DNA of 64,000 nt. It comes from Candidatus Eiseniibacteriota bacterium (lineage in GTDB: Bacteria > Orphanbacterota > Orphanbacteria > Orphanbacterales > Orphanbacteraceae). The stretch covers positions 266,381 to 330,380 of the forward strand of contig JAJCZU010000008.1 of assembly GCA_029262235.1 (NCBI GenBank). Direction: 5' to 3'. Under the pieces are notes generated by a model, which was not told the origin of the DNA, did not search any database, and saw nothing but the letters and a program-made list of their open reading frames with translations. Shown piece by piece: positions 30,446-55,233 of this stretch. Both the position numbers and the translations under genes were made by a program. Every line of letters begins with the position of its first letter. The first letter of the stretch is position 1.

Positions 30446-32020
30446 CTAAAGTAAAACGTTCGAAGATTCGGTGCGGCGCGATCCCGCGTCCGCCGTTTGT
30501 CGTCTGGTGATCAGTTCGCCGATCGTGCGTATCCCCTGTTCGATGCGATCTTCCGGTTCTTTTGTAAACGAGAGCCGGAACGTGTTCGTTCCGGAGCCGT
30601 CGAGATGAAACAGTTCGCCCGGCGCGAAATTGACGCCGGCGCGGCGCGCCTCGATCAGAAGATCCACCGTGTTCATGGAAACGGGGAGTTCGATCCAGAG
30701 CGACATGCCGCCGTCCGGCTTCGTCCAGCGAACGTCAGACGGAAAAAAGCGCTCGATGGCGCTCAGCATGGCCTGCATGCGATTGTTGTTGATCGCGAGA
30801 ACGCGCTCCAGATGCTCGTCGAGAAGCCCGCGTTCGCAGAAGCGGTGAATCGCGACCTGGGCGAGGCGGCTCGGCGCGAGATCCGTGTACGTCCGGATCT
30901 TGCGGAACGGATCGCAGAACGCTTTCGGAACCGCAAGCCATCCGAGGCGGAGCCCCGGGAAGAGCATCTTCGAGAACGTGCCGAGGTAGAGCACGTGCTC
31001 GTGCCCTTTGAGCGCCTTGAACGACGCAACCGGCTCGCCGGTGTAACGGAGATCCGCGTCGAAATGATCTTCGAGCAGCGGGACGCCGTGGCGCACCGCG
31101 ACTTCGAGCACCTCTTTGCGCCGCGCGAGCGGCATCGTAATCCCGGTCGGATTCTGGAAGTTCGGCATCGAATAAATCAGTTTGGCGCTGCGGCGCGTCA
31201 GTTCGTCGTCGAGCAGGTCCGGACGCATGCCGTGCTCGTCCATCGCGATCGGGACGAGTTCCGTTTCGTAGAGCTGAAATACGCCGATCGCGTTGTGATA
31301 CGTCGGCGACTCCACCATGATGCGGTCACCGCGATCGAAGAGCAGCTTGCTGACGAGATCGAGGCCCTGCTGCGAACCGCCGAGTATGAAGATTTCGTCC
31401 TCGTTGATCGACGCCCCCTGCTCGCGAAGGCGGTTTGCGAGCCATGCCCGCAGAGGCGGGTACCCTTCGCGTGAGCCGTAATCGAGAATGCCCGGCCCCA
31501 TTTCGGCCATCGTTTCGTTCATGACCGCGCGGAAGTCTTCGAGGGGAAAGTGATCGGAGTCGGGCACGAGGCCGCCCAGTTCGATGCGCGGCACGTTGTC
31601 GGTAACGGAGAGCCGGGCGAGGGCGTCAGGTCCCGATCGCGTGCGGCGCGACAGCGTGTGCTCGATGCTTCCGCGATTCGCGCCGCGGGGTCGGTTCCGG
31701 CCGCGCCCTGTCGGGGCCGCTTCGCCGGTACGAACGCCCGCGCGGTCCGGACCGCCCATGATCCCACTCGGGCCACGGTCGCCGACATACGTACCGCTCC
31801 CGACGCGCGTTTGGACCGAGCCGCGGCGTTCGAGTTCGGAATAAGCCTGGGCGACGGTGTTACGGTTCACGCTAAGCAGAACCGCGAGCCGCCTGATCGA
31901 CGGCAGGCGCTCTCCCGCCCCGAGCTCGCCTTCACGCACGAGCGCGTCGATGCCGTCCGCGATCTGCTGATGGATCGGCCTGGTTTCCGATCGATCTATG
32001 ACAATGTTCTGCATGAGCAT
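30446..32020 (-). CDS. pdxR: MocR/PdxR-family regulator (GntR wHTH + aminotransferase-like PLP domain)
   Basis: LPSIR.LA..L.VNRNTV..AY; PNFQNPTG; [15 protein letters not shown]; directly upstream of pdxST. Confidence 0.85.
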
Positions 32021-32051
32021 GACACTTACCACCCCGGCTGTTGATCCACCT

Positions 32052-32104
32052 ATTATATCGGCAAGATTTCTTACAGACAATACGAATTGTCACAAAGTGT
32101 CCCA
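32052..32104 (-). promoter_or_regulatory. pdxR promoter with overlapping operator-like repeats
   Basis: TTGTCT-N17-TATAAT; inverted repeat GACAAT-ACGA-ATTGTC (32076-32091); direct repeat TGTCACA-N3-TGTCCCA. Confidence 0.65.
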
Positions 32105-32115
32105 TGACGGTGGTG

Positions 32116-32201
32116 AGTGGGGGTGGGTCCTGACGCGCCGGGACACCCCGATCTCGACGGGGCTCGATCGGGGCCCCGTCCGGCGCGCCACCCACCCCAC
32201 T
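32116..32201 (-). repeat. structured intergenic element A, copy 1
   Basis: Nested stems; homologous to 52784-52866. Strand inferred from a G-U versus A-C pair in copy 2. Confidence 0.75.
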
Positions 32202-32206
32202 TTTCG

Positions 32207-32290
32207 AGCGAGAAGAAGGGGGAAGGGAAAAGGGAATAGAAAGGAGATGGAGAGAAGAAAGAGGAGAAAGAGAATGGAGGGCCAAGGGGA
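32207..32290. repeat. homopurine (A/G) tract
   Basis: About 80 nt almost entirely A/G; similar tracts at 2712-2775, 2890-2935 and 52905-52995. Confidence 0.85.
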
Positions 32291-51204: not shown

Positions 51205-52695
51205 CTAACCGTGTTGCAGATTCGCGAGACCGATCGCGTGCATGCTCTCGAAAACGCGATCGATATCCGCCGGCGTCGTCCGATGCGAGCAGACGGAAAT
51301 GCGTATCACCACGCGGCCGTTCAGCTGCGTTGTCATGACAAATGCTTCGCCCGAGAGCTGCAGCTCATCGCAGATCGTCTGGTTCAACCTGTCGATCTCG
51401 GCTTCGGTCGCCTCGTCGCGCCGTCCCCCCTGCATGCTCGCGGGCACGAACCGGAACGAGTAGATGTAGAGGTTCGGCTCATGCAGCACCTCGAAGTCAG
51501 GCGACCGCTTCACGAGCTCGTGCATATGCTGCGCGCACTCGTTGTTCTGCCTGAGCAGCTTGCGATACCCGGCTAGCCCGTACTGCTTGATCATCATCCA
51601 CACTTTGAGCGCGCGAAAGCCGCGCGACATCTGCGGCCCGAAGTCGTAATAGTTGAGCCCGTCATACTCCGTGGGGATCGTGCCGCGCAGATAAGGCGCC
51701 GACATGGAAAACGACCGTCGCAGGCGCTCGGCATCACGCACGAGTACCGCCCCGCATTCGTACGGCACGTAGAGCCATTTGTGCGGGTCGAGAGTGAGCG
51801 AGTCCGCGCGCTCCATGCCCCGATACTGGTCGCGTTTTTCGGGAAGCATCGCGCCGAACGCGCCGCATGCGCCATCCGCATGAAACCAGAGGCCGTATTC
51901 CTCACAGACATCCGCGATCTGCTCGATCGGATCGACCACGCCCACGTTGATCGAACCGACCTGCGCGACCACGCAGAACGGAATCTCTCCCGCCGCAAGG
52001 TCCCCCTCAATCGCCCGACGGAGCTCGCCGACGTCCATCGACAGATCATCCCGCGACGGCACCGGCACGACCGCGCTCCGTCCGATGCCGGTCATGTCGG
52101 CCGCCGCCTTGATCGAAACGTGGCCTTCGTGATCGGACATATAGAGCCGGAAACGGCCGGTTCGCTCCGGCGACTGCAGCCCCGACTCCGCCATGTCGTA
52201 CTGCGCCGTGTTCCGGAGCGCGGCCGTGAGCGCCGTGAAGTTCGCCATCATGCCGCCCGACGTAAAGAGCCCGCCGCAATCGACCGGGTAGCCGATCGCT
52301 TCCGCGATCCATCGAATCGTGCGCCGCTCGATCTCCGTCGCCGCCGGCGCCGGCTTCCAGCCCCCGGCGTTCATGTTCACGGCCGCCGCCAGCGCCTCCG
52401 CCAGCGTCGCGATCATCGCGCCCGAGCCGTTCACGTATCCGAAGTAGCGCGGGGAGCCGAGATGCGTTGCGTTCGGCAGGATCTTCTCATCCCAGGCGTC
52501 CAGAATCGAGTCCGGGGACTGCCCTTGCTCCGGCAGCTCCTCCTCGAACGCGCCCGCGACTTCATCCGCCGTCTTTCTCGGATAGACGGGGAGATCGCGA
52601 ATCGACTCGTAATATTCCGCGATCATGTCGATCGTTCGATACCCGAGCCTGCGGAATTCCTCGGAACTCATGTCAGGGTCGTACCAGTCCGACAC
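51205..52695 (-). CDS. group II PLP-dependent amino-acid decarboxylase (aromatic-L-amino-acid decarboxylase-like)
   Basis: HLGSPRYFGY, TSGG..AN, H.S..., W.H.DGA.G, DPHKWL, SR.FRALK.W; AAGGAGG SD. Confidence 0.92.
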   Translation of the reverse strand: MSDWYDPDMSSEEFRRLGYRTIDMIAEYYESIRDLPVYPRKTADEVAGAFEEELPEQGQSPDSILDAWDEKILPNATHLGSPRYFGYVNGSGAMIATLAEALAAAVNMNAGGWKPAPAATEIERRTIRWIAEAIGYPVDCGGLFTSGGMMANFTALTAALRNTAQYDMAESGLQSPERTGRFRLYMSDHEGHVSIKAAADMTGIGRSAVVPVPSRDDLSMDVGELRRAIEGDLAAGEIPFCVVAQVGSINVGVVDPIEQIADVCEEYGLWFHADGACGAFGAMLPEKRDQYRGMERADSLTLDPHKWLYVPYECGAVLVRDAERLRRSFSMSAPYLRGTIPTEYDGLNYYDFGPQMSRGFRALKVWMMIKQYGLAGYRKLLRQNNECAQHMHELVKRSPDFEVLHEPNLYIYSFRFVPASMQGGRRDEATEAEIDRLNQTICDELQLSGEAFVMTTQLNGRVVIRISVCSHRTTPADIDRVFESMHAIGLANLQHG

Positions 52696-52783: not shown

Positions 52784-52866
52784 CGTGGCGGGTCCTGTCG
52801 CGCCGCGACACCCCACACCTCGTCAGGCTCGGTGCGGGGTCCCCGTCCGGCGCGCCACCCGCCACG
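52784..52866 (-). repeat. structured intergenic element A, copy 2
   Basis: GGGTCCTG.CGCGCCG.GACACCCC...GGGG.CCCCGTCCGGCGCGCCACCC shared with 32116-32201. Confidence 0.75.
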
Positions 52867-52981
52867 GTCCCGCACAGGACAACCTCAACACCCCTCGCCC
52901 GCGAGGGGAAAGGGGAAAGGAGATAAGAGGGGGAAGGAGAAAGAAAGGGATCGGAGTATCCATTCCCCATCCCCTCCTATC

Positions 52982-53449
52982 CCCTCCTGTTCCTTACTTC
53001 GCGCGGAGGCGTCGGCACTGCCGCAGCATAGGACGGGGAATGAGTACTCGAATGAATGCGAAACTCCCTCCTCCCGCCCTCGTGCATCGGCCCCCGCAGG
53101 CCGAGCCCCATTGGAGGACCGCGGGCACGGTGCCCCTCGTTCCGAACCCGATGACAGACGGTCCGACAGGGCGAGGCCGAGAGGGAAACCTATCTCCTCC
53201 CACTCCCTCCTGTTCCTCACTTCGCGCGGAGGCGTCGGCACTGCCGCAGCATAGGACGGGGAATGAGTAATCGAATGAATGCGAAACTCCCTCCTCCCGC
53301 CCTCGTGCATCGGCCCCCGCAGGCCGAGCCCCATTGGAGGACCGCGGGCACGGTGCCCCTCGTTCCGAACCCGATGACAGACGGTCCGACAGGGCGAGGC
53401 CGAGGAGGCCGATACACGAGGGCGGGATCTTAGGGGATCCTCGCATTCA
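52982..53449. repeat. 200-bp near-identical direct repeat (52982-53181 and 53205-53404; period 223), element D
   Basis: Only two substitutions seen between the copies; the second copy is completed by a complementary arm at 53407-53449. Confidence 0.92.
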
Positions 53450-53471: not shown

Positions 53472-53500
53472 TTGCCTGCGCGCCTGTGCGCGCCTATAAT
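53472..53500 (+). promoter_or_regulatory. sigma70 promoter of top6BA
   Basis: TTGCCT-N17-TATAAT, then GGAGG SD. Confidence 0.7.
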
Positions 53501-53520: not shown

Positions 53521-55233
53521 ATGAAGAAGGGTCGTGCGAGTCAGAAAGGCGGCGGAACCGCGCAGGCGGAACTGTTCGGCGAAGAAACATCAAGTGAGAT
53601 GGCAGAGCAGAAAACCAGGGGCTCAAGCAAGACGTCGCAGCTCAAAGTGACGAAGAAGAACCGGACACCGAGCCCGAAAACGCCGAAGTCCAGGGGCGTA
53701 CACAAGGTCGCGAAGCAGCGCGAGATCTCGGTCAGCGAGTTTTTCGCGAAGAACCGCCACCTGCTCGGGTTCGATAATCCGTCGAAAGCGCTCCTGACGA
53801 CCGTGAAAGAGGCGGTCGACAACTCCCTGGACGCGTGCGACGAAGCGGGCATCACGCCCGAGATCCACGTCGCGATCACGCAGACACAGGACGACCGCTA
53901 TCTGGTTTCGGTGCAGGACAACGGCCCCGGGATCACGCCGAAGGAGATCCCGCGCATCTTCGGATCGCTCCTCTACGGCAGCAAATTCCATCGCCTGCGC
54001 CAGTCGCGCGGACAGCAGGGCATCGGCATCTCCGCCGCGGGCATGTACGGACAGCTCACGACGGGCAAGCCGATGACAATCGTTTCGCGCGTCAAACGGA
54101 ACAAGGCCCACCGCTTCAGCATCATGCTCGACACGAACACGAACCTGCCGGTCATCAAATCGGACGAGGAAGTCGAGTGGGAGTCGAAGCACGGCACGTG
54201 CGTCGAACTGGAGCTCGAAGCCAGCTACAAATCGGGCCGCCATTCCGTTGACGACTATCTATGGCAGATCGCGCTCGCGAACCCGCACGTCGAGATCCAC
54301 TACACGCCGCCGAAGGGCGACGCACGCACGATTGCGCGCGCCACGAAAGTGCTCCCGGCCGAAGCGAAGGAGATCAAGCCGCATCCGCGCGGGGTCGAGC
54401 TCGGCCAGCTCATGAAGATGCTGAAGGATACGCGCGCGCGCAATCTGAGCGCGTTCCTGCAGACCGAGTTCAGCAGGGTGAGCGGCAAGGTCGCGAGCGA
54501 AATTCTCGCCAAGACGAAGCTGAGTGAGAAAACGAGCCCCGCGCGCGCGCATCGCGACGCCGCGGAGTCGCTCTACAAGGCCATTCAGTCGACGAAGATC
54601 ATGAATCCGGCCACGAACTGTCTTTCGCCGATCGGCGACGACCAGTTGATCGCGTCGCTCATGGAGCGGCACGACGCGGACTTCTGCGCCGCGATCACGC
54701 GTCCGACGGCCGTGTATCGCGGCAACCCGTTTCTGATCGAAGCGGCCATCGCGTACGGCGGCAAGTCGTTCAGCGCCGACGAGCCGATCAAGCTCTACCG
54801 TCTCGCGAACCGCGTGCCGCTCATGTATCAGAAGATGGCATGCGCGATTTCGAAGAGCGTGATCGATGTTGCCTGGCGCAACTACCTCGTGCAGCAGAGC
54901 CGCGGCGCGATGCCGGTGGCGCCGATGGCGGTGCTCGTTCACATCGCGTCGGTCTGGGTGCCATTCACGTCGGAATCGAAAGAGGCGATTGCTTCGTACC
55001 CCGAGATCACGAAGGAAGTGAAGCTCGCGGTACAGGAGAGCGGGCGCAAGGTCGCGACGCACATTCGCCGCGGACGCCGGCTTGCGGACCAGGAAAAGAA
55101 GAAGAGCTACATCGAAAAGTATATTCCGCATATCGGCATCGCACTGCAGGAGATTCTCGGCCTGACCGACGCGAAGCGGACGACGACCGAAAACAACCTG
55201 AAGGACATTCTCGAGAAAAGCCGGAAGCTCTAG
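53521..55233 (+). CDS. top6B: DNA topoisomerase VI subunit B
   Basis: EISVSEFF.KN, KEAVDNSLDA, DNGPG, QSRGQQGIGIS (GHKL), KPHP.GV, R.ANRVPL, VPFTSESKEAI. Confidence 0.96.
   Translation: MKKGRASQKGGGTAQAELFGEETSSEMAEQKTRGSSKTSQLKVTKKNRTPSPKTPKSRGVHKVAKQREISVSEFFAKNRHLLGFDNPSKALLTTVKEAVDNSLDACDEAGITPEIHVAITQTQDDRYLVSVQDNGPGITPKEIPRIFGSLLYGSKFHRLRQSRGQQGIGISAAGMYGQLTTGKPMTIVSRVKRNKAHRFSIMLDTNTNLPVIKSDEEVEWESKHGTCVELELEASYKSGRHSVDDYLWQIALANPHVEIHYTPPKGDARTIARATKVLPAEAKEIKPHPRGVELGQLMKMLKDTRARNLSAFLQTEFSRVSGKVASEILAKTKLSEKTSPARAHRDAAESLYKAIQSTKIMNPATNCLSPIGDDQLIASLMERHDADFCAAITRPTAVYRGNPFLIEAAIAYGGKSFSADEPIKLYRLANRVPLMYQKMACAISKSVIDVAWRNYLVQQSRGAMPVAPMAVLVHIASVWVPFTSESKEAIASYPEITKEVKLAVQESGRKVATHIRRGRRLADQEKKKSYIEKYIPHIGIALQEILGLTDAKRTTTENNLKDILEKSRKL

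Follow-up and report, generated by a model that had tools for sequence, protein, structure and literature searches.

Two similar stem-loops, each lying upstream of a PLP-related gene, raise the question of whether they belong to a regulatory RNA, possibly linked to vitamin B6, or to a repeat that happens to be found there. Both occur in the stretch of 64,000 nucleotides analyzed here (the window; G000:C8:266381-330380), which is part of a genome of 4.47 Mb in 11 contigs, with 62% G+C and 95.5% completeness (G000). The initial annotation of the window had left the matter between a cis-regulatory motif, conceivably B6-linked, and a dispersed repeat. Covariation between two copies alone, however, cannot separate a regulatory RNA from a mobile hairpin. 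Below we describe the copies of the window, the family to which they belong, its distribution, and the reading that we favor, namely, that Element A, as we call these stem-loops, is a selfish palindromic repeat.

Both stem-loops were recovered from the sequence (Table 1), and a pairwise alignment of the two copies showed, along with the shared blocks, the compensatory differences that had been reported for them, namely, GGTGGGT/ACCCACC versus GGCGGGT/ACCCGCC and CCCCGATC/GATCGGGG versus CCCCACACC/GGTGCGGGG. Pfam matches support the identities given to the PLP-related genes on the minus strand, upstream of which the copies lie in the same orientation, and a purine-rich tract is indeed present on the plus strand beyond each copy. 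Copy 1 is slightly diverged, its closing helix TGGGT/ACCCA and loop TCAGG replacing the CGGGT/ACCCG and ACAGG that are typical of the family; copy 2, whose variable closing pairs are CGTGG/CCACG, has an orthologous copy in the congeneric genome G001 (ortholog alignment, L039). Folding of both copies is better than that of dinucleotide shuffles on either strand, with z values from -2.7 to -4.5. Stability is greater on the minus strand (-62.6 and -61.0 kcal/mol for copies 1 and 2, versus -59.0 and -56.2 kcal/mol on the plus strand), and this better-folding strand is referred to as the E strand.

Table 1. Element A copies and associated features in the window (positions count from its first nucleotide).
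Feature	Position	Strand	Details
Element A copy 1	32116..32201 with closing pairs; core 32124-32194	-	Covariance-model match G000:C8:298495-298582(-), 89.5 bits
Element A copy 2	52784..52866 with closing pairs; core 52789-52861	-	Covariance-model match G000:C8:319160-319249(-), 85.1 bits
Sigma-70-like promoter (predicted)	32052..32080	-	TTGTCT, 17 nt, TATAAT (32080 to 32052); 10/12 matches; separates copy 1 from the MocR/PdxR-like gene; lies outside the repeat
GntR + aminotransferase-fold regulator gene (MocR/PdxR-like)	30446..32080	-	PF00392 3.2e-16, PF00155 8.7e-32
PLP-dependent decarboxylase gene	51205..52695	-	PF00282 1.7e-73
Pyrimidine-rich tract (purine-rich on plus strand)	32210..32280	-	Upstream of copy 1 in E orientation; recurrent companion module
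Pyrimidine-rich tract	52905..52949	-	Upstream of copy 2 in E orientation

A -10-like box had been claimed between element and gene in both cases. At copy 1 this was borne out by a predicted sigma-70-like site (shuffles give a mean of 0.1 sites), but at copy 2 this strict scan was negative for the interval up to the PLP decarboxylase gene. Since copy 1 lies upstream of the predicted promoter, the element falls outside the 5' UTR of the MocR/PdxR-like gene, whose real start, as judged from its sequence, is probably an ATG near 32014-32020. Divergent from these minus-strand genes, on the plus strand and on the other side of the two copies, lie a gene for an Exo_endo_phos protein and one for a topoisomerase VI B-like protein, according to the Pfam scan of the window. 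The latter gene (53521-55233, plus strand) is found here in a bacterial genome, and its product matches PF09239 (9.4e-55) plus a GHKL ATPase domain; another sigma-70-like promoter with 10 of 12 matches is predicted near it, at window positions 53472-53500.

The notion of a pair of copies did not survive a search of the whole genome. Iterated nhmmer gave 30 matches, two of them partial, and a covariance model built from 25 full copies of this genome found 29, at a density of approximately one copy per 150 kb, mostly in intergenic DNA. Gene calls were made with a codon-usage caller of our own, which gave 3255 ORFs over 89.5% of the genome, and on this basis the 30 nhmmer matches are distributed among convergent (9), divergent (8) and co-directional (11) gaps, with two at a contig end. 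The orientation of the copies is unrelated to that of either neighboring gene; in co-directional settings, as read from the setting table, four copies are sense versus six antisense. A Pfam scan of 50 ORFs, namely, 46 that neighbor or overlap copies plus four genes of the window, pointed to housekeeping functions with no relation to one another, and it retrieved among the neighbors HMG-CoA-lyase-like, CrcB, ABC transporter, glutamate dehydrogenase, sigma factor and GAPDH genes, as well as EF-G, SRP54, LeuRS, ribosomal protein S21, photolyase and polyphosphate kinase.

These data bear directly on a B6- or PLP-responsive cis-regulatory RNA, akin to a riboswitch, which was suggested by the two window copies being located upstream of PLP-related genes and in their orientation. 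PLP-related products are indeed encoded by 4 of the 50 ORFs scanned, that is, by the two window genes and by two Cys/Met-metabolism enzymes, but one of the latter is faced by its copy at the 3' end, and the other is 754 bp away from a copy that sits inside another ORF; 25 of the 29 copies have no PLP-related neighbor at all. With many copies beside unrelated genes, which is the outcome that the initial annotation had named as refuting it, the B6 link fails, and it is the dispersed repeat, the other half of the original proposal, that gains support. A B6-linked riboswitch or leader RNA was thus rejected as hardly credible, given that copies occupy all intergenic settings in both orientations, that they are also found inside genes, and that copy 1 is upstream of the predicted promoter. 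Intrinsic terminators were rejected as well, because no terminator-like site was found around either window copy and because copies also occupy divergent promoter regions. On the repeat reading, the window copies are passengers in divergent promoter regions, and neither has a B6-specific role. The presumed novelty of the family held, as Rfam 15 gave no match on the window at gathering scores, nor on any element in four element-bearing loci at E values up to 1.

Each copy of Element A is an imperfect hairpin of 72-100 nt with an invariant base, which consists of a helix GCGGGT/ACCCGC, an asymmetric internal loop GG/ACAGG and a helix CGCG/CGCG, and which can be written as the two-ended motif CGGGTGGCGCG ... 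CGCGACAGGACCCG. On top of this base stands an apical hairpin that is exchangeable between subfamilies. Outside CGGGT/ACCCG there are three to five extra closing pairs, the sequence of which differs in nearly every copy of G000 while their complementarity is kept. The E-strand consensus for this genome proceeds along the 5' arm through variable pairs, CGGGT, GG, the helix CGCGCC.., a GGGGA bulge and the apical helix CCCC-nnnn; it turns at an 11-12-nt loop, GAGCCTGYCGA, and returns along the 3' arm through TG, ..GGCGCG, ACAGG, ACCCG and the variable closing pairs. In three copies, the 3' internal loop bears a small additional hairpin.

Covariation was evaluated in two sets of copies. In the alignment of the 25 G000 copies 92.7% of the cells are paired, versus 83.1% in shuffles, none of which (0 of 500) reaches the observed value; both sides have changed in 12 of 29 pairs, and slid controls are only 32-52% paired. 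In a set of copies from metagenomes, described below, the corresponding values are 90% versus 73.7% after shuffling, with both sides changed in 21 of 28 model pairs, in an alignment that was fitted to the model and so leans towards the structure. The extra closing pairs are also seen in this set, since 76 of 80 copies have at least three of them contiguously, versus approximately 21 of 80 with shuffled partners.

Copies of Element A have spread both between genes and, in frame, within them; they are gained or lost between close relatives, and they decay to remnants. The only congeneric genome available, G001 (82% complete, 830 contigs), is 83-94% identical to G000 across syntenic flanks and has 23 covariance-model matches; the same model had no match in 59 other relatives, including the seven other genomes of the same family. 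Eleven G001 loci correspond to G000 sites that also carry a copy, and the copies in five others (L040, L041, L042, L045 and L051) are without counterpart at the syntenic G000 site, L041 being a tandem array of four copies with a 139-bp period. At two further sites only a 3' remnant is left in G000, where G001 has a full copy. Tandem units of two copies are found in G000 on contigs C1 and C6, together with three pairs whose 5' ends face each other, namely, C10:37541(-)/37960(+), C3:201489(-)/201776(+) and C3:401368(-)/403012(+). Between the copies of the last pair there is an ORF of 420 residues with a low coding score and a weak match to the Chlam_PMP repeat (G000:C3:401595-402857; L009:3220-4482); in G001 the distance between these copies is only 253 bp.

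Global alignment of three G001-only copies with the syntenic G000 gaps left the intergenic part unalignable, as is often the case for intergenic DNA around orthologous copies, and the exact ends, the target and the empty site are therefore not readable from these comparisons. The flanks beside the G000 core are inverted complements and not direct repeats. All-against-all BLAST with 400-nt flanks detected no larger shared unit around the copies beyond neighboring copies, tandem units and low-complexity tracts. In a public DNA run (X1), contig depth over the element is 90-108 versus 11.6 in the flanks, and contigs end there; a joint across the element, as expected of an excised or empty form, was not seen in the contigs of four DNA runs. 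Among eight orthologous G000/G001 pairs, differences occur in 11 of 205 unpaired columns and in 45 of 368 paired columns, and 13 base pairs have changed on both sides and have been kept. This pattern fits structural selection for function, or else patchy gene conversion among paralogous copies, which also fits because the variants of the orthologs are common to other copies.

As for insertion into genes, one G000 copy constitutes an in-frame insert of 31 residues in the central loop encoded by an ATG22/MFS transporter gene, an insert that is missing from all five family homologues aligned. The G001 contig breaks at this transporter insert, and its last 13 nt resemble the element in the opposite orientation, which counts as weak evidence. 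Among metagenome copies, 9 of 73 read through in frame in coding-like ORFs, seven of them sense and two antisense. These cases include nuoC, an Lhr-like helicase gene, and two adjacent paralogous membrane-protein genes, in which the element occupies an equivalent position of the protein but is oriented in opposite ways.

A pyrimidine-rich tract accompanies both window copies (Table 1), and this association extends to the genome. Tracts with at least 21 pyrimidines in 24 nt occur within 150 nt upstream of 19 of the 29 copies, and their end is often marked by a TTCCTCAC(T/G).CG-like motif. The corresponding numbers are 4 of 29 on the downstream side and 85 of 2000 for intergenic points chosen at random. 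Other repeat families of G000 are preceded by this module as well, and at one syntenic site the tract plus Element A of G001 corresponds in G000 to the motif with a different repeat, so that the intergenic repeats are mosaics. A mosaic build is also characteristic of BIMEs.

Several further observations concern these tracts and the other repeats of the genome. Across G000, pyrimidine-rich tracts that reach 24 nt or more number 131, of which 83 lie between genes; one is at window positions 52960-53009 (plus strand). Many end in a TTCCTCAC(T/G)-type motif that is followed by one of several G+C-rich repeat families, and they are enriched in convergent gaps, which hold 27 of 65 merged tracts versus 16% of all gaps. 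The window also contains a member of a second repeat family at 53090-53120 (plus strand), with the core CCCCGCAGYCCGAGCCCCATTGGAGG and a contig depth of 38 versus 11.6, whose other occurrences are at C3:58245, C4:816883, C7:1885, C7:91499 and C8:73745 of G000. Contig depth at window positions 53325-53385 (43 versus 11.6, run X1) suggests another repeat. Elsewhere, a GGCCAnnTGGCC-type palindrome repeat is found at G000:C6:1-404, C2:49936-50090 and C6:84294, with a 153-bp tandem array at the start of C6, and two inverted pairs at G000:C4:90806/90959 and 92100/92253 represent another element, in which CGGGTGG(C/T)GCG is present as in Element A, with GACAGG on one arm too, and which is possibly related to the family. 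There are 60 occurrences of the 12-mer CCGAACCCGTTC and its complement in G000, and 45-49 of overlapping 12-mers, which may reflect either a repeat or a coding motif; the top genome-wide 12-mers are mostly coding sequence and uninformative for repeats.

To what extent is Element A found outside these two genomes? A first scan of species genomes used a degenerate pattern of 20 nt, which gave mostly single, apparently chance matches in high-G+C genomes, and the covariance model confirmed 10 of 80 loci. Four of these come from records with the title 'MAG: Gemmatimonadetes bacterium isolate SS_bin_27' (79-92 bits), and six from records with the title 'MAG: Candidatus Rokuibacteriota bacterium isolate NC_groundwater_413...' (35-45 bits). 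In the latter, the same base surrounds a longer apical part and forms the center of a repeat of approximately 210 bp, which has long terminal inverted repeats ending in CTAG; CTAG or TAG is present near the ends of some metagenome and Rokuibacteriota copies. The two-ended pattern CGGGTGGCGCG-N46-76-CGCGACAGGACCCG retrieved at least 121 stretches from soil-metagenome contigs, 80 of which were examined, and the model recovered 77 of them. Invariance of the base in these copies does not count as evidence, as it is shared by construction of the pattern. Judged by their apical parts, they represent at least six subfamilies (72-100 nt) that look unrelated, and farther than approximately 20 nt from the core each copy has sequence of its own. 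Some positions are shared between organisms: in three metagenome organisms, whose elements belong to different apical subfamilies, the element is at the same place upstream of lepA, and two organisms have it between nuoC and nuoD, which could reflect long residence and possibly a role.

In its exact form, the two-ended pattern has 23 matches in G000 and 17 in G001, and none in 399 other sampled genomes, where a reversed-pattern control also gave zero. It had no match in viral contigs, and blastn against a plasmid collection with one metagenome copy and window copy 2 as queries gave no match. The distribution is thus patchy, comprising at least two differently titled phyla plus high-G+C soil bacteria. 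Among the papers listed in a literature search for the two base motifs, all are on subjects that are unrelated as judged by title, and nothing relevant on Eisenbacteria and repeats was found by title or abstract start.

Element A resembles REP/REPIN, MITE and RPE repeats, and it is set apart from them by its constant three-part base, its asymmetric loop and its exchangeable apices across phyla. For REPINs, the available text of PMC3116915 describes compensatory changes and proposes a route through single-stranded DNA, and that of PMC3733652 describes REPs inside genes and head-to-head dimers. According to these portions of both papers, REP/REPIN sequences and Element A have in common that they are multi-copy, mostly extragenic, G+C-rich imperfect hairpins with compensatory changes, and that they show head-to-head pairs, clusters, occasional genic copies and a suggested single-stranded intermediate. 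However, the Element A unit has 72-100 nt, three helices and the GG/ACAGG loop, in contrast with the 20-40-bp palindrome or doublet of a REP; its base carries unrelated apical hairpins in other lineages; and G000 has no Y1/RAYT gene, whereas REP/REPIN elements are mobilized by RAYT (TnpA-REP) transposases, the gene for which is the hallmark of that system and is typically flanked by the repeats. Upon inspection, a GTAG/CGTC tag is not visible at the foot of the G000 copies, and CGTC lies inside the outer helix of some metagenome copies. RPEs, whose in-frame insertion into protein-coding genes is reported in the accessible part of PMC10969869, are likewise palindromic, add a peptide to unrelated proteins, and are also intergenic; the likeness is one of description. 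The hosts of Element A are an unrelated group, the element is shorter, and most of its copies are intergenic.

With MITEs (Correia, ERIC, BOX/RUP) Element A shares the small, non-coding unit that forms a long hairpin through inverted termini, the many copies and a presence that varies between relatives, and the terminal inverted repeats of the approximately 210-bp Rokuibacteriota units add to the likeness. On the other hand, no target-site duplication has been established in G000, no parent insertion sequence was found among the four transposase families searched, and the outermost closing pairs vary yet stay complementary, which cut-and-paste of a fixed unit does not explain. A further comparison can be drawn with the attC sites of integrons, which are recognized as a folded single strand, with covarying helices, conserved unpaired bases, terminal structures of variable length and one active strand. 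Element A would be comparable in these respects, but no GTTRRRY/RYYYAAC core is seen in it by eye, and it is dispersed in both orientations and not in cassette arrays beside an integrase.

The two strands of the element are not equivalent. On the E strand, the helices of the metagenome copies contain 45 G.U versus 3 A.C combinations, and one model pair is most often U.G, a state intermediate between C-G and U-A. In G000 the numbers are 17 and 8, with six of the eight A.C in the two outermost, poorly paired positions; this count is based on the alignment, since a simple walk-out count misregisters at the bulge. In addition, the E strand is the G-rich strand by GC skew, presumably the leading strand, in 21 of the 29 G000 copies, a modest bias in which tandem copies are not independent events. 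Because the orientation relative to transcription is not fixed, the G.U asymmetry would be more simply explained by a single-stranded intermediate of the source copies than by selection at the RNA level at each site. The bias in orientation, modest as it is, would be expected if the folded strand were exposed on the lagging-strand template, which is the arrangement of IS200/IS605, as cited in the text available for PMC3116915.

As to the enzyme involved, PF01797 (Y1/RAYT) has no match in G000, at 95.5% completeness, in a search whose control was positive in 6 of 14 reference genomes, and PF07282 (TnpB), PF01609 (IS4/IS5 DDE) and PF01548 (IS110) have none in G000 or G001 (82% complete). The only transposase-like ORF near a copy is a fragment of an rve integrase, 1.15 kb away, at the end of contig C11. 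These four transposase domains were not detected, yet several abundant repeat families are present. Element A may be pictured as spreading through a single-stranded intermediate of one strand, the minus strand of the window, either as DNA at the replication fork or as RNA, with an enzyme acting in trans that would recognize the invariant base and the asymmetric loop. It is tempting to go further and to see in the base, GCGGGT-GG-CGCG ... CGCG-ACAGG-ACCCGC, the recognition module of an undescribed single-strand (DNA or RNA) mobilization system, with apical hairpins interchangeable between phyla. In genomes without Y1/RAYT, TnpB, IS110 and IS4/IS5 transposases, such a module would have to be moved by a new enzyme or by a host replication or repair function. 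We consider this extended version rather unlikely.

Taken together, these results are best accounted for by a selfish palindromic repeat that is, or formerly was, mobile, a reading to which we assign a probability of roughly 0.7, with its mode of spread as suggested above; its membership in a non-autonomous, structure-conserving repeat family of the REP/REPIN, MITE or RPE kind appears probable to us. The same conserved structure could instead belong to a functional RNA present in many copies, or to a domain embedded in mRNAs for processing, stability or protein binding, in which the internal loop is the functional site and selection keeps the helices. Conservation of loops and bulges with covarying helices across distant lineages is what such an RNA would show, as are the excess of G.U over A.C on one strand, the retention of orthologous copies with compensatory differences in G000 and G001, the recurrent positions at lepA and between nuoC and nuoD, and a mild excess of sense over antisense copies (29 versus 17) in the co-directional settings of the metagenomes. 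But these 17 antisense copies among 46, like the four sense to six antisense of G000, mean that orientation towards the flanking genes is not fixed, and copies occur within coding sequence in both orientations, as truncated remnants, and at sites that differ in presence between congeners. Neither a terminator-like site at the window copies nor a promoter for an independent transcript was found, and Rfam had no match, so that a functional RNA seems unlikely to us.

Selection on DNA rather than RNA could also be invoked, if the hairpins or cruciforms were chromosomal sites for a nucleoid protein, gyrase or a recombinase, maintained for genome organization. The spacing of about one copy per 150 kb, mostly intergenic, the conserved asymmetric loop, and a strand bias that follows GC skew in 21 of 29 copies agree with this, and BIME/REP elements are reported, in the portions of the literature available, to bind host proteins. 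Any such housekeeping role would, however, have to be specific to the genus, as Element A is missing from all seven other genomes of the same family, and genic insertions, tandem arrays and remnants fit selfish spread better; architectural sites are accordingly very unlikely. We thus retain the selfish palindromic repeat as the probable reading of Element A.

For the annotation of this genome, the outcome is that a false riboswitch lead has been removed, and that repeats at which contigs end, and which break the assemblies of such genomes, have been recognized. The family to which they belong is abundant in soil metagenomes and common to unrelated phyla, while it is missing from Rfam and was not found in the literature searched. 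Element A is a tractable case by virtue of its constant base with apical hairpins that are exchangeable, the G.U signature of one strand, and its insertion into genes that stay intact. It could help to explain the spread of orphan palindromic repeats for which no transposase is known, as well as the way in which they reshape proteins and promoter regions in uncultured bacteria.
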